In this document: in pieces, positions 1,054 to 62,803 of the stretch | How the letters are laid out: the number at the start of each line of letters is the position of its first letter | Numbering within the stretch: the first letter of the stretch is position 1 | Assembly (NCBI GenBank): GCA_934120675.1 | Contig: CAKOUU010000008.1 | Coordinates: 1,420-65,419 of the forward strand | DNA: 64,000 bases | Direction: 5' to 3' | Source of the DNA: an uncultured Clostridia bacterium | Lineage (GTDB): Bacteria; Bacillota; Clostridia; TANB77; CAG-508 | The notes under the pieces: model-generated | The model's input: the letters and a program-made list of their open reading frames with translations, nothing else | What the model was told of the DNA's origin: nothing | The model's database searches: none | Position numbers and translations under genes: made by a program

Positions 1054-1521
1054 TTAATTACAACAATTTATATTTCCAGTTCCTGTGCTATCATTTTTCT
1101 CTAGCATATCTTCAATAGTATGCCAAGCCAAAAGAGCACATTTAACTCTTGCTGGCATATTAGAAACATTTCTAAAAGCTATTGCATCTTCCAATTTTTT
1201 AAGTTCTTCCTCATCAGTTATCTCTCTTTTTATCATTTCTATAAATGTTTTTATAATCTCTTTTGCTTCTTCAACTGTTTTACCTTTTAATGTATCTATC
1301 ATTATTGATGTTGATGCTTGTGATATTGCACATCCATGTCCTGAAAATGCCATATCTTCTATTTTATTTCCATTTAATTTTAATTGTAGTGTTATTTCAT
1401 CTCCGCAATTTGGATTATGCCCTACTTCACAGTAGTCTGCATTTTCTAGTTTCTTTTTGTTGTATGAATTCATACTGTGTTCCATTATTAGTTCATTGTA
1501 AACATCTGTTAACTCGTCCAT
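1054..1521 (-). CDS. sufU: SufU-type Fe-S cluster scaffold / sulfur acceptor
   Basis: 155 aa with NPNCGDEITLQLKL, GHGCAISQAS and PARVKCALLAW, the three conserved Cys contexts of SufU/IscU. It lies downstream of sufS. Confidence 0.85.
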   Translation of the reverse strand: MDELTDVYNELIMEHSMNSYNKKKLENADYCEVGHNPNCGDEITLQLKLNGNKIEDMAFSGHGCAISQASTSIMIDTLKGKTVEEAKEIIKTFIEMIKREITDEEELKKLEDAIAFRNVSNMPARVKCALLAWHTIEDMLEKNDSTGTGNINCCN

Positions 1522-1587
1522 TGAAATTTACCTTTCTTTTTTTATTAATTTATTGACAATTTTATTAATTAGTGTTAATATAATAAT

Positions 1588-1666
1588 ATAAAGAGACAAG
1601 AGCAAGCTCTTATCTCATGTGTGGGTGAGATTTATCCATGGGATAGATCTCTATTTTTCTTTTTTT
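1588..1666 (+). ncRNA. Candidate cis-antisense sRNA (putative type I antitoxin), copy 2
   Basis: TTGACA(1553-1558)-17-TAATAT(1576-1581). Hairpin at 1593-1616. Terminator stem GAGATTTATCC/GGATAGATCTC (1627-1651) is followed by a T-run. It has the same T.G wobble position as copy 1, and compensatory changes keep the stem. Confidence 0.45.
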
Positions 1667-1771
1667 GGAACAATATTTTAATGCATATCTCTTTTTAGAG
1701 CAAATATGTACTAGAAACGATAATCCTAAAAAGAAAGCTATTATTATTAATAAAATTTTTATTAACTCCAT
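1610..1771 (-). CDS. 53-aa hydrophobic/basic peptide, type I toxin-like, copy 2
   Basis: MELIKILLIIIAFFLGLSFLVHICSKKRYALKYCSKKRKIEIYPMDKSHPHMR, the C-terminal part of track ORF 1610..1870. A strong SD GAAGGAGG lies before the ATG at 1771. Promoter TTGACT(1930-1935)-17-TATAAT(1907-1912). Confidence 0.55.
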   Translation of the reverse strand: MELIKILLIIIAFFLGLSFLVHICSKKRYALKYCSKKRKIEIYPMDKSHPHMR

Positions 1772-1947
1772 AGCCGTTAACCTCCTTCTTTCGAGATTTA
1801 CATTTAAGTCATGAAAGACATAAATGCATAGATTAGCAAGCATATAACATAGACTTACTAGTCTATGCACTTATGCCTGAAGAAGGTTAACTTCCCAACC
1901 GAGAAGATTATAATATATATTTACTTAATAGTCAATATTTATTTGAA

Positions 1948-3168
1948 TTATTTTATATAATTTTTAAACATACCATAAGCCTTATCAAGTGCCTTAACCA
2001 ATTTATCTACATCCTCTTTTGTATTGTAGATGTAAAAACTTGCTCTACAAGTAGAATCAATACCTAAGAATCTCATAAGTGGTTGAGCACAATGATTTCC
2101 AGAGCGCACACATACACCTTCTGAATCTAAAATACTTGCAACATCATGTGGATGTACCCCTTTAATGTTGAATGAAATCACGCTTGAATGATTTTCTTCA
2201 TTTGGTGTTGTGTATAATGTTAGATAATCTAGTTTTGATAATTCTTGTCTTGCATATGATATTACTTCATGTTCAATTTCTTGTATTTTGTCATATCCTA
2301 AATTTTCAATATAATCAATAGCAGCACCTAAGCCAATTACGCCTTCAACATTTTGTGTACCAGCCTCAAATTTATTTGGAAGTGGTGCAAATGTTGTATC
2401 TTGTTCATAAACGTATTCTATCATATCTCCACCCATTAAAAATGGAGTCATTTTGTTTAGTATTTCTCTTTTTCCATATAATACGCCTATTCCAAGTGGG
2501 GCAAGCATTTTATGTCCTGAAAATACTAGAAAATCCGCATCTAAATCTTGAACATCAATTTTCATATGTGGTATGCTTTGTGATGCGTCAACTATTACTA
2601 CTGCACCTTTTTTATGCGCATATTTTATGATTTTTTTCACATTATTTATTGTTCCTAAAACATTTGAAACATGTGTAATTCCAACGATTTTTGTTTTGTC
2701 TGTAATTTTACTTTCTATTTCTTCGTCTGTAATTTCATAGTTTTCGTTAATGTACATGTATTTTAATTTGCTTCCTGTTTGCTTTGTCATTTTTTGCCAA
2801 GGAACCAAATTTGAATGATGTTCCATTATTGAAATTACTACCTCATCATCTTTTTTTAGGTTGTCCAAACCATATGAATATGCAATTAAGTTTAAACTTT
2901 CTGTTGCATTTTTTGAGAATATTATTTCTTCTCTGTGTTTTGCATTTATGAATTTTGCTATTTTTGTTCTTGTATTTTCGTATTGTTCAGTTGCTTCTAC
3001 ACTTAATGAATATGCCCCCCTGTGTGGGTTTGCGTTATATTTTTGGTAGAATTCTTCTACTGCTTTTATTACTTGAATTGGTTTTTGTGTTGTTGCTCCA
3101 CTGTCTAGATATGTTATGTTTTTATTTTCTAGTAGTGGAAAGTCTTTTTTTATTTGTTCTGTATTCAT
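1948..3168 (-). CDS. sufS: Cysteine desulfurase, SufS subfamily
   Basis: 406 aa with HHSNLVPWQ, the PLP-Lys context SGHKMLAPLGIGVLYG, and the active-site loop RSGNHCAQPL. Confidence 0.9.
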   Translation of the reverse strand: MNTEQIKKDFPLLENKNITYLDSGATTQKPIQVIKAVEEFYQKYNANPHRGAYSLSVEATEQYENTRTKIAKFINAKHREEIIFSKNATESLNLIAYSYGLDNLKKDDEVVISIMEHHSNLVPWQKMTKQTGSKLKYMYINENYEITDEEIESKITDKTKIVGITHVSNVLGTINNVKKIIKYAHKKGAVVIVDASQSIPHMKIDVQDLDADFLVFSGHKMLAPLGIGVLYGKREILNKMTPFLMGGDMIEYVYEQDTTFAPLPNKFEAGTQNVEGVIGLGAAIDYIENLGYDKIQEIEHEVISYARQELSKLDYLTLYTTPNEENHSSVISFNIKGVHPHDVASILDSEGVCVRSGNHCAQPLMRFLGIDSTCRASFYIYNTKEDVDKLVKALDKAYGMFKNYIK

Positions 3169-3171
3169 AAA

Positions 3172-3372
3172 TTATCTCCCATCATCTTCTATTTCTGATA
3201 TTTGTTGATTTTCGTTACATTCTTGTGTATATACAATTTTCTTTTCTTCTGAAAAAGCTTTTTCTATTTCATCATAATTTGGTTCAATAGGATTTATTTT
3301 AATGTTTTGGTATTTTATCATATTTTTCCATGTTCCCATAAATTCATCCATAAACTCTCTTGAATTCTTCAT
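3172..3372 (-). CDS. Hypothetical small acidic protein inside the suf operon
   Basis: 66-aa ORF packed between sufD (stop 3406) and sufS (start 3168). I recognise no motif. Confidence 0.4.
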   Translation of the reverse strand: MKNSREFMDEFMGTWKNMIKYQNIKINPIEPNYDEIEKAFSEEKKIVYTQECNENQQISEIEDDGR

Positions 3373-3405
3373 TAAATCTTTCTCCTTAAAATTACAATTA
3401 TATTA

Positions 3406-8570: not shown

Positions 8571-11500
8571 CTATTTATTATTTAATTTATATGGAGGTGA
8601 TAATTTACTAATTCCAAAACATCCACCTGCAAATAGTAATTCACCTGTTTTAGGATTAACTTCTAGAGAATTTGTTTCAAAACCACCTTGTCTTCCTTGT
8701 TTTACAATAGAATTTGTTGTATTACTTGTTATAACTTGGAAAGATTTCCCTCCATCAACTGAACGATATAATGCACAATCATTTAAAAATGTATTTCCAG
8801 CTCCACCACAGTAAATTATATTAGGATCTATTGGGTCTACTGCAACCTTAGAAATGCAATACCCACCTTTTAAGTTTACAGGAGCTCTCTTATATTCGTC
8901 AACATATCTATTTAATACACATTCTACACTACCATCTTTTGTAGATGTTTTGTATAAATATCCACCTTCACATGCTGCATATGCCACTTCGTTTTTCCAG
9001 TCATATGCTACATCCATTACATGTGCTGATGCGTATTTAGGATTTGGTATAAATTCTGTATTATTTACTTTTTGCCAAGTCTTTCCATCATCATAAGATG
9101 TTACAATATATTTTCCAGTTTCGTCCATTCCATATAATTCTTTTTGACCTTTTGGGTTATGTGTATAAACATTTATACATCCATCCATTTTTGCCCAAGT
9201 ATGTCCACCGTCTTCACTTCTTAAGTCACATGCAAATAATACTTTTGGATTTGTTGGTGACTGGTATGATGATTCTATTCCTGCATTTATGTTTTCTTTT
9301 GTAAAATACATTCCTGTATCTACAATTGTTTTTCCACCATCAAATGTGATTTTCAATTTTCTTGGATTATGCCATGCATCTGAAACTCCAACAAAATATG
9401 TATTTTCATCTACTGCATACCCACCATAGCAGAAGCCACCCCATCTGTATCCTGACATACTAATATATTTCCAAGTTTTTCCGCCATCTGTTGTAACACA
9501 TCCATCATAATCTTGTGAGCCAAAATATATAATGTCTGGGTTATATACATTGTAGTGAACATTTCCTCCACTTAAAATTCCTGTAATTCCGTTGCTGTTC
9601 CATTTAAAAGTTTTTCCACTATCAGTACTTGAACTTGCATAATCTCCTTGTGTATGTATCCAAACTTTGTTTTCATCAACAGTACTCCACATAGGAATGC
9701 TCATTCTGTTATTATATGGCATAAAACTTAATTCATCTGATAATGTTGAAATTTTCCATGTCTTTCCGCCATCTATACTGTAATATGGATAATTTTGATA
9801 TGTTCCTTGTCTATCTATGACTATCATCTTATTTGAATTTAATGGACTTACTTTTATGTTCATTGGTTGTGTTGTTGGATATGAAGTTGATTCTATTTTA
9901 CTAAAAGTTTTTCTATCTTTTGAAATATGTACTCCATTATTATTGCAGTAATAAACATTTATTTTATTATTTTTTTGCGCTGTTAAATCTAGTCCTGTAA
10001 TAGTATCATTCACTATTTTTTCAAAGTTTTCACCTTTATCAGAGCTGTAATATATTCCATCTTTTCTTGAAACATATACATCCCCTGTATATGGATTTAT
10101 TTTTATTGTTCCATCACTTAAATCATTATTTACAAGATTCCAAGTATAGCCACCATCTGTTGTTTTATATAAACCCTTTTCGCTTTCTTCTAGATAATTG
10201 TCTTCTGTTTCATATGCTGTTGACCAATATGCAACCATACATCTATTTTTTTCTTGATTATATGATGATTCATCATATGCTATTGCTTCCCTTACATCTC
10301 TATGCCCTTTTACTAACATCATTTTAGTAAACTTCCATGATTTTCCCCCGTCTTCTGAAATATAAAGTCCATTTGTATTAAATGGTGAGCTATTTATTCC
10401 AACAGCTACAACATATGATGGATTTTTAGGATCTATTGAAAACGCTCCTACTCCTCTTGACTGTAATCCTGCATTTGATTGCTCCCAGTTTTGGCCTCCA
10501 TCTTCTGAACGATAAACTCCACCTACATCTGTTCCATATAATAACAATTTTCCGTCTTTGCTTATAGCCATTCCAATTGGCCATTGACATCCTTCTCCAC
10601 CTGTTGTGACTCCTTGTTTTTGCAACAATTCCTTTGAAACCATTGGCACTGCTGACCATGATGTTATATTTGTTACATTGTTTTTATCATAAGGACATTC
10701 TTTGTGTTGTTGTATCAATAATGATAAATCTATTATGCTTAATTTACTATCACTGTTCATGTCTGCTTGTTCTAATGATGTTACATTTTTTGATTTTATT
10801 AAATATTCTTGCATTATTTCTATATCTTCATCATCTATAACAGAACTTTGGTTTACATCTCCTAAAAATATTTCTGATGCTGCAAATACTGTACTTTGAC
10901 TTATTAGTATTCCACAAATTATAAGCATCATCATTGTTTTTCCACATTTTTTACTCTTATGGTAAAATACTATTGATAAAATTGCAAAAACAAATATTGA
11001 AATTAACAAAGCCCATCCTTTTCCTGTTTTAGGTAGAATATTTGGTAATATTTCTTTATGCTTTTTTTCTAGTTCCAAATCATTGTTATTTGTATTGTTT
11101 TTATTTTCTGAATTTGATGGTGTTTCAATTTTATTTTCTTCATCATTTTTTTCTGCTGACTTTTCTTTTATTAATATTTTCTGTGTTAATTTTTCATTTT
11201 TAAATTCTATATTTCCATCTGATGCTACTATTCCATCTATAGTTATTTCAGTATTTTCAATGTTTGCATTGTCTTTTGCTTTTAATTTTATTTTCAAAAT
11301 TTCTTTGTTTGTTTTGTCTTGCTTGTTAATTACATTGAATTCCTTATTATCTTTATTGTATTTTATGCTTTCCCAACCTTCTTTAGTTTCAAAATTACTT
11401 TCATCTATTTTTTCCCAAATATTTTCGTCATAATTTATTTTTGCTTGGAATGCATTGATTTGTTCCTCACTATTTATTTTTAATGTTACTGATGTTTCTT

Positions 11501-11660
11501 CTCCTTGTTTTATTTCTGTTTTCTCTGTTTCTAAACTGCAACTCAATGATTTTTCTGTTGCTTGTATTTTGTTATTGATTAATAAAGTTCCTGTAATTAT
11601 TAGTATTATTGTTATTAAAAAAACTACCCTTTTTTTCATTATTTTTCTCCCAAAATTCAA
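8571..11660 (-). CDS. Composite secreted protein in one ORF: signal peptide, cohesin-like module, LPKTG sorting signal, second signal-like segment, dockerin, BNR/Asp-box beta-propeller (GH74/sialidase-like)
   Basis: Cohesin-like INAFQAKINYDENIWEKI. LPKTG (nt 11022-11036) followed by WALLISIFVFAILSIVFY and HKSKK. MMMLIICGILISQSTVFA-ASE (from nt 10934). Dockerin loops DVNQSSVIDDED and DMNSDSKLSIIDL. At least 10 Asp-boxes (SEDGGQNW, SEDGGKSW, TTDGGYTW, SIDGGKTW, ...). Confidence 0.8.
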   Translation of the reverse strand: MNFGRKIMKKRVVFLITIILIITGTLLINNKIQATEKSLSCSLETEKTEIKQGEETSVTLKINSEEQINAFQAKINYDENIWEKIDESNFETKEGWESIKYNKDNKEFNVINKQDKTNKEILKIKLKAKDNANIENTEITIDGIVASDGNIEFKNEKLTQKILIKEKSAEKNDEENKIETPSNSENKNNTNNNDLELEKKHKEILPNILPKTGKGWALLISIFVFAILSIVFYHKSKKCGKTMMMLIICGILISQSTVFAASEIFLGDVNQSSVIDDEDIEIMQEYLIKSKNVTSLEQADMNSDSKLSIIDLSLLIQQHKECPYDKNNVTNITSWSAVPMVSKELLQKQGVTTGGEGCQWPIGMAISKDGKLLLYGTDVGGVYRSEDGGQNWEQSNAGLQSRGVGAFSIDPKNPSYVVAVGINSSPFNTNGLYISEDGGKSWKFTKMMLVKGHRDVREAIAYDESSYNQEKNRCMVAYWSTAYETEDNYLEESEKGLYKTTDGGYTWNLVNNDLSDGTIKINPYTGDVYVSRKDGIYYSSDKGENFEKIVNDTITGLDLTAQKNNKINVYYCNNNGVHISKDRKTFSKIESTSYPTTQPMNIKVSPLNSNKMIVIDRQGTYQNYPYYSIDGGKTWKISTLSDELSFMPYNNRMSIPMWSTVDENKVWIHTQGDYASSSTDSGKTFKWNSNGITGILSGGNVHYNVYNPDIIYFGSQDYDGCVTTDGGKTWKYISMSGYRWGGFCYGGYAVDENTYFVGVSDAWHNPRKLKITFDGGKTIVDTGMYFTKENINAGIESSYQSPTNPKVLFACDLRSEDGGHTWAKMDGCINVYTHNPKGQKELYGMDETGKYIVTSYDDGKTWQKVNNTEFIPNPKYASAHVMDVAYDWKNEVAYAACEGGYLYKTSTKDGSVECVLNRYVDEYKRAPVNLKGGYCISKVAVDPIDPNIIYCGGAGNTFLNDCALYRSVDGGKSFQVITSNTTNSIVKQGRQGGFETNSLEVNPKTGELLFAGGCFGISKLSPPYKLNNK

Positions 11661-25990: not shown

Positions 25991-27397
25991 TTATTTACTT
26001 TCTTTTATTTTAAGTAAATTTCTTGTTACAATTGCATTGTATATTGCAATTATTACTAGTCCCCAGAATGATATCATTCCAAAACTGTTAATAGGCACCC
26101 ATTTTCCGAAACAAAATACTATTGCTATAATGCAAATTGGTAATATTCTATTAAAGAATTTTACATATGTTTCTGTTGTAGCTTTTCCAACTACATTTTC
26201 AACTTCTTCTTTGTTTTGTTTATTTATATTTTTTAGTAACATTGTTGTGAATATATAATCTAGTATTAACATTACAACAATTCCACATATTGATTCAATT
26301 GATATTGTTACATTTGTGTATCTTACTAATAAAGCATATATTGCTGATAACCCTATAAATGAAATTCCTGCTAATAATCCGTTTGTTTTATATTTAGCTA
26401 TTAAAACAACTATTCCTATAACTGAAATTACTGCTACAGCTATTGCTATATTACGCAAGTCTTGCTCTGTTATATCTGATAATATATATTGATTTTTTTC
26501 TAAGTCATATTTTACTGGTAAATTGCCACTATCTAATACTGTTGCAACATTTTGTGCTTGTGTTACATATCCATTTAATGTTGATTTGTCTGATGTTGCA
26601 CTTCCAACTGATAACTGTATTTTTCCAGTTGTAATTGCTTCATCAAAACTTGTTGACATTAATTCTTCGTCATCAATTTTCATTGTTATTTTCTTTCCTG
26701 TTGTTGATGCACTATCAGTTGTTTTATTTTCTGTATTAGTTGTATTTTCTGTGTTTGTTGCTTTTTCTGAATTTTCAGTTGATGTATTTCCTTCTGTTTC
26801 GTTTTCAACAGTGTTATTCTCTGTTGTATTATTTTCAGATTTTACATATGTTTTGCTTATATCTTCTAGCTTTTTCTTTCCATCTTTATTAAAAGCTATT
26901 TCCAAATATACTGATGTTCCTGATGATGTTGTGTTATATAATACACTTGAAGACTTTATATCATCATTATTCATTAATACTTCTTTTGTTTCACTATCTA
27001 ATATTTCGAATTTTCCTACTGTAGTCAAATTACTTACTATAGTGTCTGTATTTGAACCTTCTGGTACTTCTATAATCATTTCTCCCGTTGCTTTATTTAA
27101 AGAAATATTATATTCTTGTACATCTAATTTTTTTAATCTTCTTTCTATTACTTTTTTTGCTTTATTATAATTTTCTTCTGTTTTTGTTTCGTCAGAATTT
27201 TTTGAATTTAAAGCCAATTTTATTGTTCTTGCTCCATTTAATTCCATTGCATATGTGTAGTCTTTAACTATATTAGACATTTGATTTTTATTTTGTTTAT
27301 ATATTCCAAAAAATCCTACCATTGATACTAAAACAATTAGTAATATAATTGTTAATATCTTTATTGTTTTCATTACATTTTTTCTTTCTTTTTTCAT
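25991..27397 (-). CDS. SecD-like membrane protein (divergent) with a Thr/Asn/Glu-rich insert
   Basis: 468 aa: N-terminal TM, MELNGARTIKLAL (compare the SecD GLDLxGG strand), a C-terminal 6-TM-like region ending NAIVTRNLL, and the low-complexity stretch ENNTTENNTVENETEGNTSTEN. Confidence 0.4.
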   Translation of the reverse strand: MKKERKNVMKTIKILTIILLIVLVSMVGFFGIYKQNKNQMSNIVKDYTYAMELNGARTIKLALNSKNSDETKTEENYNKAKKVIERRLKKLDVQEYNISLNKATGEMIIEVPEGSNTDTIVSNLTTVGKFEILDSETKEVLMNNDDIKSSSVLYNTTSSGTSVYLEIAFNKDGKKKLEDISKTYVKSENNTTENNTVENETEGNTSTENSEKATNTENTTNTENKTTDSASTTGKKITMKIDDEELMSTSFDEAITTGKIQLSVGSATSDKSTLNGYVTQAQNVATVLDSGNLPVKYDLEKNQYILSDITEQDLRNIAIAVAVISVIGIVVLIAKYKTNGLLAGISFIGLSAIYALLVRYTNVTISIESICGIVVMLILDYIFTTMLLKNINKQNKEEVENVVGKATTETYVKFFNRILPICIIAIVFCFGKWVPINSFGMISFWGLVIIAIYNAIVTRNLLKIKESK

Positions 27398-27492
27398 TTT
27401 ACAAATCCCTCACTTTGCTCGTTTATTGTCGTCCAAAATCTTTTAATTTTGTATTCCAACTATTTAAATTTTTGTTTAGTATTTATTTAGTA

Positions 27493-28719: not shown

Positions 28720-28793
<74 letters not shown>

Positions 28794-28837
28794 AACTATG
28801 AAATTGTTATCAGTTTTCCACATATTATAAATAAATG

Positions 28838-28911
<74 letters not shown>

Positions 28912-45893: not shown

Positions 45894-45969
45894 TGGAGCT
45901 TACAGCGAGGATTGAACTCGCGACCTCGGCCTTACCAAGGCCGCACTCTACCAACTGAGCTATGCAAGC
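45894..45969 (-). tRNA. tRNA-Thr (anticodon GGU)
   Basis: Hand fold: GCTTGCA/TGTAAGC acceptor, GCTC-AGTTGGTA-GAGT D-arm, anticodon loop TTGGTAA, T-arm GCGAG-TTCAATC-CTCGC, encoded CCA. 76 nt. Confidence 0.9.
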
Positions 45970-46794: not shown

Positions 46795-48486
46795 TTAAAA
46801 GTCAAGACTTTCTTTTAAAAATGTCCAAAAATTATCTGTTTCCATGCCTTTTTCCCAAGAGGCAACTCCAGCTAAATTATTATTTCTGATTAAGTTTATT
46901 TTTTCTGTTAATGATTTTTCATCTTCTATCCAAATTTTCTTTGTATATTGACCATCTTGGTATTCTACATAGTATTGTTTTAAGTTATCGTCCCATTGTT
47001 TTTCTACTCCAGCAGGAATTACATTATACATATTTTTTAATGATACTGTAGTTTGTTTTACAACTTTTCCTGAGCTGTCTTCTGTCCATAATCTTGTGTA
47101 TAGTGGAATAGCTAAAATAATTTTATCACTTTTTATTTCTTCTGTTTTTAAAAATTTGTTCAAGCTTACATTTACCCAGTCATATCCTGCTGTTGTTCCT
47201 GATTTATTACTTGATGTTCCATATTGGTCATATGCCATAAATATTATATAATCTGCAACATCTCCAATTACATTTCTGTCAAAACACATTGACCATGTTT
47301 CAGAGCCATCTGGTGCAGTAACATCAACAGATACTACAAGTCCCATATCTTTTAATCTAGGTGTTAATTCTATTATAAATCTAGAATACATATCTTTGTC
47401 TTCTTGTTTCATATTTTCAAAGTCTATATTTATACCATCTAATTTATATCTAACACAAGCAACTACTATTTCATTTATTAATTCTTGTCTTTTATTGTAG
47501 TCATTCATTATATCTGAAGTAACATTTATCATTCCATTTCCTGCATTTTGAACCATTGGCCATACTTTATATCCATTTGAATGTGCCCATTCTATATATT
47601 CTTGACCTGCTTGTCCTATATTTTCAGTTAGTTCTCCTTTTGAATTTAAGTGGAAGAATGCTGGTGATACAACATTTACGCCATCCATTGTAACCCCTGT
47701 TCTATCTGGAGCTGTTGCTACTTCTGAATAATAGTCCCAAACTAAATTTACTTTTCCATCTATTTGTTTTGATTCTTGCATTTCTTCTCTAACTACTACT
47801 GTATTTGCTATTTTGTTAGATTTTACAAAACCAACTTTTCCATTTTCAGTTCTTATTTTTGCATACCCTTTATCTTCTGAAACAACTATTACATAACTTC
47901 CTTTTTTTACTCTGTCTACTGTTTTTGCTATAAATTTTGTTGAAGATTTTACTGCTACATCTTTTGTTATTATTGCCTTTTTTTGTTCTTTTGATGTTGA
48001 ATCTATTGTTAATACTTTTGAATTTTCTATATATTTAATTTCTATTCCATATACATCTTCTAATTCTGTTATTGGAATATATATTGTTCCATTTCTGTTT
48101 TCCGCATGTGCATATGTATTTTTATTTGAACCATTTACATTCATTTTGTTTTCTTCTAAGCTTATTGTTGCTATTTTATTATTGTATGTTGTTACTATAT
48201 TATCATTTTCTTTGTCTTCATATATGTATTTATCAAAAAAGTTTCCTAAATCTTGTTTTGATATGTATATGTTGTCATTTTCTATTATGATTTCTTTCTT
48301 TAAGTTTGATGTTACATTTTTGTTGTTTATTACCAAGTTGATGTTTTTGTTTTTGTCTAGTATTATGTGATTATTTATGTTATAGGCTATAATTCCTATT
48401 AAAATTATTCCTATTATTGTTATAAATGTTTTTATTATTCTTTTTTTCTTTTTTTCTATTTGTTCTTTTGTCATTCTTTGTTTCAT
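46795..48486 (-). CDS. GH18-family glycoside hydrolase with an N-terminal anchor, stalk domain and SH3b-like domain (YaaH/YdhD-like)
   Basis: 563 aa with the GH18 catalytic motif GINIDFENM, an SH3-like KGSYVIVVSEDKGYAKIRTENGKVGFVKS, and an N-terminal TM. Confidence 0.8.
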   Translation of the reverse strand: MKQRMTKEQIEKKKKRIIKTFITIIGIILIGIIAYNINNHIILDKNKNINLVINNKNVTSNLKKEIIIENDNIYISKQDLGNFFDKYIYEDKENDNIVTTYNNKIATISLEENKMNVNGSNKNTYAHAENRNGTIYIPITELEDVYGIEIKYIENSKVLTIDSTSKEQKKAIITKDVAVKSSTKFIAKTVDRVKKGSYVIVVSEDKGYAKIRTENGKVGFVKSNKIANTVVVREEMQESKQIDGKVNLVWDYYSEVATAPDRTGVTMDGVNVVSPAFFHLNSKGELTENIGQAGQEYIEWAHSNGYKVWPMVQNAGNGMINVTSDIMNDYNKRQELINEIVVACVRYKLDGINIDFENMKQEDKDMYSRFIIELTPRLKDMGLVVSVDVTAPDGSETWSMCFDRNVIGDVADYIIFMAYDQYGTSSNKSGTTAGYDWVNVSLNKFLKTEEIKSDKIILAIPLYTRLWTEDSSGKVVKQTTVSLKNMYNVIPAGVEKQWDDNLKQYYVEYQDGQYTKKIWIEDEKSLTEKINLIRNNNLAGVASWEKGMETDNFWTFLKESLDF

Positions 48487-48917
48487 TTTTTCTTTTCCTT
48501 TCGCATATTTATTTTATACTTATACTATATCATAAGTTTTTAAGTTATAAAAGAGGTTTTTTATAATTTTCCGAATTTATAAAAACAAAAACTACCAATA
48601 TATTTCGTTATTGAAAAAGAGCAGGATATTTTCCTGCCCCTTTTTAATTATGCAACTAAACAAGCATCAATAAATTTCTGTGTAATGCTATACTTGACTT
48701 CTTCATCACACTTTAGAAATCCTTTTTCTGCCATTTCTTGCATCAATTCGATTTCCCGTGAACTTACACTGTTGTCGCACAAATCTTTGTATTCATCACT
48801 GGAAAAAGTCTGTTAATCATTGAAATTAAATGGTTAGTAGACTTTTATTTGCTTAACTTGACAAGTGTTGAATTTTATGTTAATGTATATGTTAACAAAC
48901 TTAAAGGAGGAAACATT

Positions 48918-61417: not shown

Positions 61418-61516
61418 GTCAATTTTCCTTGATATTTAACCAAAAATATTATATAATGCCATAGAAAGAATCATAAAAGAAAAAAAATTATATAAATTAA
61501 ATTTTAGGAGGCAAAA

Positions 61517-62803
61517 ATGATAGATATCAAATTTTTAAGAGAAAATCCCGATGTTGTAAAACAAAACATCAAAAACAAATTTCAAGACGAAAAACTAGTA
61601 TTAGTTGATGAAGTTATTGATTTAGACATAAAAAACAGAGAAGCAAAATTAAATGGAGACAATCTAAGAGCAGAAAGAAAATCTTTAAGTGCAGAAATTG
61701 GTGGACTTATGAAACAAGGCAAAAAAGAAGAAGCAGAAAGCATAAAAGTAAAAGTTCAAGAAATAAATGCACAACTTGAAGAGAATGAAAAATTAGAAGC
61801 AAAATATGCTGAAGAAATAAAATCAAGAATGATGAAAATACCAAATATTATGGACCCATCTGTTCCAATTGGTAAAGACGACAGCGAAAATGTAGAAGTT
61901 CAAAGATTTGGTGAACCAGTTGTTCCAGATTATGAAATTCCATATCATGCAGACATTATTGCAAGATTTAATGGAATGGACAAAGAATCTGCAGGACGTA
62001 CAAGTGGCGTTGGTTTCTACTACCTAATTGGTGATGTTGCAAGGCTTCACGAAGCAATGCTTGCATATGCAAGAGATTACATGATTAACAACGGTTTCAC
62101 ATATGCTATACCACCATTTATGATTCGTAGTGATGTTGTAACTGGTGTTATGAGTTTTGAAGAAATGTATGATATGATGTACAAAATTGAAGGTGAAGAT
62201 TTATACCTAATCGGTACTTCTGAACACTCAATGATTGGTAGATTTAAAGACCAATTAATCAAAAAAGATGAACTTCCAATTAGCATGACATCATACTCTC
62301 CATGTTTCAGAAAAGAAATTGGTTCACATGGTCTAGAAGAAAGAGGTTTATACCGTGTTCATCAATTTGAAAAACAAGAAATGATAGTTTTATGCGAACC
62401 AGAAGATTCTATGAACTGGTACAATAAAATGTGGAAATTAAGTGTTGATTTATTTAGAAGTTTCAATGTTCCAGTAAGACAACTTGACTGTTGTTCTGGA
62501 GATTTAGCAGACTTAAAAGTTAAATCTTGCGATATTGAAGCATGGAGTCCTAGACAAAAGAAATACTTTGAAGTTTGTAGTTGCTCTAACTTAGGAGATG
62601 CTCAAGCAAGACGTTTAGGAATTCGTGTTAAGAGTGAAAAAGGAAACTATTTCTTACATACATTAAATAATACAGTTGTTGCTACGCCAAGAGGACTAAT
62701 TGCAGTATTAGAAAATAACTACAATGAAGATGGAAGTGTTACTGTTCCAGAAGTTTTAAGACCTTACATGGGTGGAACTGAAAAAATTCTTCCAAAAAAT
62801 TAA
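61517..62803 (+). CDS. serS: Seryl-tRNA synthetase
   Basis: 428 aa with MIDIKFLRENPD, a coiled-coil arm, class II motifs (FRKEIGSHG, LNNTVVATPR), and promoter TTGATA-17-TATAAT. Confidence 0.96.
   Translation: MIDIKFLRENPDVVKQNIKNKFQDEKLVLVDEVIDLDIKNREAKLNGDNLRAERKSLSAEIGGLMKQGKKEEAESIKVKVQEINAQLEENEKLEAKYAEEIKSRMMKIPNIMDPSVPIGKDDSENVEVQRFGEPVVPDYEIPYHADIIARFNGMDKESAGRTSGVGFYYLIGDVARLHEAMLAYARDYMINNGFTYAIPPFMIRSDVVTGVMSFEEMYDMMYKIEGEDLYLIGTSEHSMIGRFKDQLIKKDELPISMTSYSPCFRKEIGSHGLEERGLYRVHQFEKQEMIVLCEPEDSMNWYNKMWKLSVDLFRSFNVPVRQLDCCSGDLADLKVKSCDIEAWSPRQKKYFEVCSCSNLGDAQARRLGIRVKSEKGNYFLHTLNNTVVATPRGLIAVLENNYNEDGSVTVPEVLRPYMGGTEKILPKN

Follow-up and report, generated by a model that had tools for sequence, protein, structure and literature searches.

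A single open reading frame of an uncultured Clostridia bacterium is predicted to encode a self-docking surface-display precursor

The 64,000-nucleotide stretch analysed here (the window; positions 1,420 to 65,419 of contig CAKOUU010000008.1, from the uncultured Clostridia assembly GCA_934120675.1) carries a single uninterrupted open reading frame (ORF; 8571..11660, minus strand, on which all features of this gene given below lie). Its product combines, in this order, a signal peptide, a cohesin, an LPKTG sortase motif, a first transmembrane-type segment (TM1), a basic loop, a second signal-peptide-like segment (TM2, ending VFA|A), a dockerin and a GH74-like double propeller. The protein would measure 1029 residues if the TTG at 11660 were the start; more likely, judging from the sequence, translation begins at the ATG at 11639 and yields 1022 residues, since a Shine-Dalgarno sequence (GGGAG, 11647..11651) lies 7 nucleotides upstream and the homologues all begin with MKK at the same Met. 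The single stop codon occupies 8571..8573. We count residues from this ATG, so that the numbers of the original prediction, an earlier reading of the locus, are ours plus seven. That prediction had described one ORF with a cohesin, an LPXTG sorting signal, a second signal-peptide-like segment and a dockerin, an architecture now borne out by the sequence, by Pfam and by AlphaFold2 (AF2) models.

The N-terminal part is laid out as a sortase substrate, as had been claimed. A Sec signal peptide is predicted at residues 1–27 (11559..11639; MKKRVVFLITIILIITGTLLINNKIQA|TEK, closing with NNKIQA|TEK), with an n-h-c layout, I-Q-A at −3/−1 and an AF2 helix at residues 2–22. It is followed by the cohesin module (residues ~30–160; 11160..11552), whose match to Pfam PF00963 was marginal (26.2 bits against a cut-off of 24.1, E 9.9e-6); matches to PF00963 are also precomputed for several orthologues. 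In an AF2 model of residues 1–320, built on 58 aligned sequences, residues 30–160 were all-beta with a predicted local distance difference test score (pLDDT) above 90, the dockerin helices scored 85–94, the linker was disordered, and two helices (208–228 and 233–249) lay at the hairpin. When this model was compared with the PDB by Foldseek, the top 23 matches were all cohesins (E 3e-8 to 1e-6; TMt up to 0.80), both from C. perfringens (the best being 2w1n, E 2.8e-8, with 2jh2 and 2vo8) and cellulosomal, including 5n5p and 4dh2. At the level of the model, the cohesin fold of the N-terminal module, a nine-stranded jelly-roll beta-sandwich, is thus confirmed, and the possibility raised with the original prediction that this module might have some other fold fell away.

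A disordered, hypervariable N/E/K/T-rich linker (residues 161–201; 11037..11159; pLDDT 32–44), which ranges from ~40 to >150 residues among orthologues and probably spans the cell wall, leads to the LPKTG motif (residues 202–206; 11022..11036). TM1 follows (residues 209–226, WALLISIFVFAILSIVFY; 10962..11015), an AF2 helix at 208–228 that is kept in all homologues and would serve as the hydrophobic, stop-transfer part of the sorting signal. Next comes a basic, putatively cytoplasmic loop (residues 227–235, HKSKKCGKT; 10935..10961; net charge +4) that opens with the HKSKK tail and may, from its sequence, serve both the sorting signal, as its charged tail, and a second signal peptide, as its n-region. 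The sorting signal does not stand at the extreme C-terminus, ~790 residues lying downstream of it, and the same exception is documented for the streptococcal Zmp proteases. Among 22 orthologues, P203, T205 and G206 were invariant and K204 nearly so, within a linker hypervariable in length and sequence; among 58 sequences of the cassette (signal peptide to dockerin), down to 23% identity, the only invariant columns were Y70, W89, P203 and G206. With the P and G of LPxTG accounting for two of the four invariant columns and standing inside a hypervariable linker, we conclude that the sorting signal is under selection.

TM2 (residues 236–253, MMMLIICGILISQSTVFA, MMMLIICGILI-SQSTVFA; 10881..10934) has an h-region, a polar c-region and an AXA-type site, and signal peptidase I is predicted to cut at VFA253/A254; ASEIFLGDVNQSS begins downstream of residue 253, and the predicted tryptic peptide starting at the cargo N-terminus A254 is ASEIFLGDVNQSSVIDDEDIEIMQEYLIK. 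TM1, the K-rich loop, TM2 and a small-x-small site (e.g., VFA/AS, VYA/TD, VLA/TE, FAFA/NAS) are kept throughout the orthologues. A lipoprotein signal at TM2 (L-I-I-C) was considered and rejected, as the segment does not fit a lipobox (I at −1) and its Cys is not conserved. Four residues past the predicted cleavage site begins a type I dockerin (residues 258–314; 10698..10868), which matched PF00404 with 33.2 bits (cut-off 22.9) and has the two Ca-loop repeats previously read from the sequence, both of them canonical (DVNQSSVIDDED and DMNSDSKLSIID); its sequence matches in the PDB are the type I dockerins 3ul4_B (E 1.2e-4) and 6kg9. The predicted TM score (pTM) of the 320-residue cassette model, 0.61, is higher than the 130-residue cohesin alone could give, a weak hint from the model that the modules are placed in a fixed relative position. 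Beyond the dockerin lies a connector (residues 315–349, ECPYDKNNVTNITSW...; 10593..10697) that is among the most conserved stretches, with an invariant E-C-P-Y-D-K (C315, P316, Y317, D318, K319) and, within GEGCQWP, a further invariant Cys. It is poorly modelled by AF2, with low pLDDT in the cargo model, and might act as a neck stabilised by a disulfide or in recognition.

The remainder of the chain, which we call the cargo (residues 350–1022; 8574..10592), is a GH74-like tandem beta-propeller with BNR/Asp-box repeats and a TD371VGGxYRS motif, on which Pfam places BNR and Sortilin-Vps10 domains. The double propeller had been foreseen correctly; its size of ~770 residues is corrected to about 670, and its description as a generic BNR propeller gives way to a GH74-like one. 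By sequence the cargo falls outside GH74: no curated family model passed its threshold (the best, the NCBIfam F510_1955 glycosylhydrolase model, reached 121.7 bits against a cut-off of 175), PDB profile matches to GH74 were weak (E 1e-6), and a single-sequence PDB search returned one weak match only, so that a fold search was needed. Foldseek comparison of an AF2 model of residues 321–1022 with the PDB gave GH74 double propellers for all of the top 18 matches (E 1.2e-23 to 1.5e-17; TM score 0.50–0.58). With GH74 xyloglucanases and OXG-RCBH (6p2l, 2ebs, 2cn2, 6mgl) the cargo shares tandem seven-bladed propellers, Asp-box repeats and the TD[IV]GG.YR motif, at an identity of just 13–17%. In the family profile alignment, the invariant YGTD371VGGVYRSEDGG fell on ARTDIGGAYRWDAG of OXG-RCBH (ARTDIGGAYRW), with T370-D371-V-G-G-x-Y-R, invariant in the orthologues, aligned to TDIGGAYR—a motif that we take to hold the first catalytic Asp of OXG-RCBH (Asp35). 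The invariant D710/D712 in FGSQDYDG is a sequence-based candidate for the second catalytic Asp of the cargo. Its modelled fold, then, points to a GH74-like cargo and not to a generic BNR propeller.

That all of these modules are made as a single chain is nearly certain. Among 5.8 billion proteins searched there were >100 full-length homologues (1018–1099 residues, 62–96% identity), derived from NCBI, ENA, Logan and JGI assemblies and all of them fused; shorter entries in the databases are fragments at contig ends or result from frameshifted calls. Scanning one genome per species gave 11 full loci in uncultured gut Clostridia (e.g., Clostridium sp. CAG:575, CAG:389 and 28_17). The original prediction had held that the frame runs through the junction at nucleotides 10935–10945 without a stop and had proposed to look there for a stop codon or gap in orthologues; there is none, and the frame is open in the window and in 11/11 loci. 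An assembly or sequencing error, or a very recent stop loss, joining two ordinary genes might be suspected from the A-rich homopolymer runs adjoining the junction, where a −1 shift leads to a TGA overlapping an ATG. The chance of this is minute, and we consider it ruled out by the same open frame in the >100 independently assembled homologues and the 11 species-level genomes, as well as by an architecture kept in far more distant clusters (at least 44; see below). The shift itself (10935–10960, minus strand; AGT AAA AAA TGT GGA AAA ACA) puts a TGA over ATGATGATG of TM2 in an ATGA-overlap-like arrangement; we judged its reading as a vestige of two overlapping genes to be coincidental, and it carries no weight because alternate-frame stops are dense throughout this AT-rich DNA (28% GC). 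Two separate products could also arise if translation started within the gene, at the ATG ATG ATG that opens TM2, which would make the locus functionally two overlapping genes. In the window the three consecutive ATGs stand exactly at the start of TM2, and Met is common there in close relatives; this reading is nonetheless highly improbable, for no Shine-Dalgarno-like sequence was seen upstream of TM2 at the junction of the window or of the orthologous loci, and at the same position L006 and L009 have no start codon, L008 has neither ATG nor GTG and P0060 has no Met, with the architecture kept. A product starting at MMM would moreover be devoid of a positively charged n-region, and a promoter and terminator scan, in which such signals were no more frequent than in shuffles, speaks against internal initiation as well. 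We regard internal initiation at TM2 as essentially ruled out by the orthologues that have neither a Met or start codon nor a Shine-Dalgarno sequence there, which imply that the cargo half can be produced only within the same chain.

Of the original suggestion that two adjacent genes had been fused by loss of a stop, an ancient fusion as the origin of the ORF is thus what is left, and it is plausible from the sequence because standalone cohesin-LPXTG anchors with related cohesins are common. These anchors (P0147, P0207, P0217, P0228) are 255–290 residues long; their cohesin is followed by an xPxTG motif and then by a TM segment with a short charged tail. The neighbourhood of P0147 holds an LtaS-like enzyme and RNase III and no dockerin gene, and is therefore uninformative on a two-gene ancestor. 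The LtaS/sulfatase-like membrane enzyme upstream of P0147 (L013:3-2081) has an in-frame stop near the 5′ end of its called ORF, the start of which was probably miscalled.

The cassette is not confined to proteins with a propeller cargo. A profile of its first 377 positions (signal peptide to dockerin), run against 1.84 billion representative proteins, gave 158 matches at E<=1e-30, many of which match the whole profile N-terminally in proteins of 1000–3400 residues; at least 44 further 50%-identity clusters carry the cassette on other cargo, with the same module order on inspection. Their cargo consists mostly of M26/Zmp-like peptidases of 2000–3400 residues (range 1400–3400). M26 cargo with its HExxH motif, absent from the window protein with its GH74-like propeller, is present in P0155, P0160, P0167, P0173, P0175 and P0200; M26 IgA1-specific metallopeptidase domains were found in P0155, P0160, P0173, P0175 and P0200, and partial NCBIfam matches to ZmpB/A/C/D, confined to the catalytic part, in P0160 and P0167. 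Clustered with P0167 is WP_271845996.1, a protein of 3417 residues ('ZmpA/ZmpB/ZmpC family metallo-endopeptidase [Clostridium tertium]'), so that a cultured organism, too, carries the device. The cargo of P0145 is a non-propeller domain, and so is that of P0253, in which Pfam detects the dockerin only.

Two variants of this arrangement were also seen. In P0151 (2056 residues) the cassette is internal (residues 1038–1379), with ~1000 residues of EndoS-like leucine-rich repeats (LRRs) before the cohesin and a BNR propeller past the dockerin, and the wall-anchored half would in this case itself be a large LRR protein. P0346, P0252, P0358 and P0357 (312–318 residues) are small secreted proteins in which a related cohesin and a short beta domain precede a C-terminal dockerin, without LPXTG and without a hairpin; their cohesin is up to 56% identical to that of the C. 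tertium-type cassette, they lie on long NCBI and ENA contigs, and their sequences would be compatible with self-associating adaptors.

By dockerin-anchored inspection we compiled 49 divergent cassettes, 44 of them outside the window family (a strict regular expression gave just 7). The net charge of the loop was positive in 48 and zero in one (median +5, range 0 to +9). Scored within 18 residues upstream of the dockerin, a [VIATSLC]-x-A site ended TM2 in 45/49 cassettes, the other four having x-Y-G, versus 22% of random control windows from the same proteins; the dockerin starts 2–11 residues past this site, at 4 or 8 in most cases. In 31 of the cassettes there was an LPXTG-like motif, such as LPQTG, IPKTG, FPKTG, LPYTG, SPKTG or xxTGD.

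We propose, with a probability of roughly 55%, that the ORF encodes a self-docking surface-display precursor, in which a Zmp-type N-terminal sorting cassette has been supplemented with a cohesin-dockerin pair. The signal peptide (residues 1–27) would start Sec export, and the cohesin and the disordered linker would cross the membrane until LPKTG, TM1 and the basic loop, acting as a normal cell-wall sorting signal, stop the transfer. The basic loop and TM2, with their n-h-c layout, would then act as an internal signal peptide that restarts export and brings the dockerin and propeller to the outside, leaving a helical hairpin with a short cytoplasmic loop. Signal peptidase I would cut after VFA253 and release the cargo with its dockerin within four residues of the new N-terminus, sortase would cut LPKT/G and join the cohesin fragment to peptidoglycan, and a hairpin peptide of ~47 residues would be left in the membrane. 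Finally, the dockerin of the freed cargo would bind the cohesin from the same precursor, resulting in non-covalent display on the wall at 1:1 stoichiometry. The parts of this scheme differ in strength: the hairpin topology is very likely, the signal-peptidase cut and, in the window family, sortase anchoring are each probable, and cognate binding of cohesin and dockerin is a shade less so, its plausibility resting on an adjacent 1:1 pair that binds in Cellulosilyticum lentocellum (PMC13487519). That the polypeptide is one chain, cut twice, had been the second of the two options originally offered. It is favoured by the charged loop, by the enrichment of the cleavage-type site over control windows, by the short distance from this site to the dockerin and by the orthologues lacking a start codon at TM2; the cleavages and the binding are what we infer from these features.

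Several findings weigh against this proposal. Topology, both cleavages and cognate binding are all read from sequences and models, and the AF2 model of the cargo is moderate (pLDDT 66, pTM 0.64). Tblastn with SrtA and a scan for the TLxTC motif revealed no sortase gene, either within the 64-kb window or in the flanking 4 kb of the 11 orthologous loci, and 18/49 cassettes are without any LPXTG-like motif. TM2 is ~20 residues long in Zmp-type cassettes and could be a stable TM helix there. Finally, the hairpin-free relatives of 312–318 residues indicate that cohesin and dockerin in cis do not always imply cleavage. The cassettes without an LPXTG-like motif (among them P0171, P0175, P0177, P0182, P0187, P0191, P0200, P0201, P0224 and P0238) have the rest of the layout intact; the device as a whole can thus do without sortase anchoring, and in these proteins the cohesin would, from the sequence, stay membrane-anchored by TM1 as a type I membrane protein. 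This suggests a conserved core of cohesin, hairpin with cleavage site, and dockerin, to which wall linkage is an option.

The same observations lend some support to an arrangement in which TM1 and TM2 form a permanent hairpin, no signal-peptidase cut takes place and the cargo stays tethered to the membrane, with the cohesin, transferred to the wall by sortase or not, binding the dockerin as a clasp in cis or binding in trans and thereby chaining or clustering molecules. The hairpin is predicted as two helices, many Zmp-type cassettes have the long TM2, the motif-less cassettes point to membrane anchoring for at least the cohesin half, and the hairpin-free cohesin-dockerin proteins could self-associate, as proteins with both modules are known to do according to the R. 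bromii amylosome literature. We consider such an uncleaved form unlikely, however, since a −3/−1 small-residue site so far above background is hard to explain without cleavage and since TM2 of the window family, with an ~11-residue h-region and a polar c-region, is typical of a cleaved signal peptide and not of a TM anchor; the streptococcal precedent reports processing downstream of TM2, and a cargo of 700–3000 residues tethered at the membrane would sit beneath the wall. Slightly less likely again is that both cleavages occur as proposed and the partners are not cognate, so that the anchored cohesin recruits other dockerin proteins and the cargo dockerin binds another cohesin (on the same or a different cell, or on a different protein), like the glycosidase complexes of C. 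perfringens. Fitting with this, the nearest structural relatives are C. perfringens cohesins that link different enzymes, and the dockerin partners of the abundant standalone cohesin-LPXTG anchors, whose cohesins are related, must be encoded elsewhere. Yet cohesin and dockerin are co-inherited in cis across the distant clusters, at least 44 of them, whatever the cargo, the window has no other cohesin or dockerin gene, and the adjacent one-to-one pair mentioned above binds in another Clostridium-group organism (PMC13487519).

The self-docking precursor has a clear relative in the streptococci. The published model for the IgA1 protease and ZmpB/C/D comprises an N-terminal LPXTG, two TM segments and a second signal-peptidase site (PMC3518915 and PMC9637739, citing Bender & Weiser 2006), and Bek-Thomsen et al., writing on the Zmp family, describe a signal peptide, an atypically N-terminal LPXTG and an LPXTG region needed for correct localisation. 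Processing downstream of TM2 and LPXTG-dependent localisation are known for the pneumococcal IgA1 protease alone (PMC3518915, PMC9637739), the mature enzyme being reported as cleaved 56 residues downstream of LPXTG (PMC9637739). Since the hairpin with double processing is established as the model for streptococcal Zmps and was known before, the original statement that no such case had been described was wrong for the topology (PMC3518915, PMC9637739). For the pairing it stands as far as the open-access literature goes, in which we found no mention of a sorting region of this kind flanked by a cohesin on its N-terminal side and a dockerin on its C-terminal side. What appears to be new is the self-docking version with its cohesin-dockerin pair, together with its wide occurrence among the Zmp-like proteases and glycosidases of Clostridia. 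To our knowledge, internal signal-peptidase processing of a polyprotein is rare in bacteria.

With the streptococcal M26 Zmps (ZmpA/B/C/D) the window protein shares a signal peptide, a non-C-terminal LPXTG, two hydrophobic segments and a second signal-peptidase-type site, and the cut lies at a similar distance from LPXTG (56 residues reported for the streptococcal enzyme; 47 predicted here, G206 to A253). Many of the relatives that bear the cassette have catalytic regions homologous to ZmpA/B/C/D, whereas N-terminal sequence homology between the cassettes and the streptococcal ones was not detected, the NCBIfam Zmp models matching the catalytic part only. Unlike the window protein, with its GH74-like cargo, the streptococcal Zmps carry an M26 peptidase; after TM2 they have repeat regions and a G5 domain, and the papers cited above mention neither a cohesin before LPXTG nor a dockerin after TM2, nor do they explain surface retention of the mature enzyme by a defined module pair. 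More tentatively, at odds a little short of even, we suggest that the cassette represents a widespread, unrecognised clostridial device, by which sortase and signal peptidase I would split a polyprotein-like precursor in two: a cohesin anchored to the wall or membrane, and a cargo with the cognate dockerin at its start. The N-terminal LPXTG region of streptococcal Zmp/IgA1 proteases would then be a reduced relative, and gut Clostridia would use the device to display their giant Zmp-like proteases.

Among cohesin-dockerin systems, sortase-anchored single-cohesin scaffoldins (R. flavefaciens ScaE; the standalone P0147, P0207, P0217 and P0228) share with the window protein a signal peptide followed by a single cohesin and a linker, then an LPXTG-type motif with its hydrophobic segment and charged tail and, as in the ScaE type, a wall-anchored cohesin that receives a dockerin-bearing partner. 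In these scaffoldins, however, the sorting signal is C-terminal and the partner comes from a separate gene, whereas the window protein has its partner in the same ORF. The adjacent genes ClcC/ClcD of Cellulosilyticum lentocellum encode one cohesin and one dockerin-bearing glycosidase that bind 1:1, but as two ordinary secreted proteins from two genes, with no sortase signal between them and no hairpin described in the abstract (PMC13487519). Cohesin and dockerin do occur in one ORF in the GH84/GH33 toxin-complex modules of C. perfringens (2w1n, 2jh2, 2vo8) and in monovalent adaptor scaffoldins (PMC11557425), yet these remain one chain and bridge other proteins, without a sorting signal or TM hairpin between the modules; the window protein, in contrast, has between its cohesin and dockerin both a sorting signal and a predicted signal-peptidase site. 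The scaffoldin classification of PMC11557425 is based on domain content alone and would call the window protein a monovalent adaptor or non-SLH anchoring scaffoldin, that is, misfile it.

The surroundings of the gene are those of a housekeeping chromosome (26–33% GC), with the Suf system, MutL, GroEL, DnaK/DnaJ/HrcA, MreB, CTP synthase, ThrRS and SerRS; MreB fits a walled rod. Elsewhere in the 64-kb window we found no further gene for a cohesin, a dockerin or an LPXTG protein. A GH18 protein (chitinase/endo-beta-N-acetylglucosaminidase-like; 46795–48513, minus strand) with an N-terminal copper amine oxidase N1 domain, a domain listed as cell-wall-interacting (PMC11557425), may be a second surface glycosidase, predicted from its sequence to use a different anchoring solution. 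Amid well-annotated housekeeping genes, Pfam gave nothing at E<=1e-5 for a 472-residue ORF (25991–27409, minus strand). A pair of tRNA-Gly(TCC) genes lies in tandem, 45 nucleotides apart, at 28720–28911 (minus strand) and a tRNA-Thr(GGT) gene at 45894–45969 (minus strand). Between ~60000 and 64000 the GC skew changes sign, with a cumulative skew minimum near 62 kb, and gene orientation turns from minus to plus (SerRS, 61508–62803); this could be a replication origin or terminus region.

If the proposal is true, each molecule brings its own docking site. With a cohesin on the anchor and a dockerin opening the processed cargo, retention would have a defined mechanism; how such an enzyme stays on the cell once its anchor is cut off is left unexplained in the Zmp papers cited here. 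Domain-based cellulosome censuses would file such proteins as adaptor scaffoldins, and pipelines name them by their cargo only. A natural single-gene cassette for 1:1 self-assembling display would also be attractive for Gram-positive surface engineering. The cassette is no one-off, and its M26/Zmp-like cargo belongs to the family that contains the IgA1 proteases; it may thus be relevant to the way in which gut Clostridia display proteases and glycosidases directed at the host.

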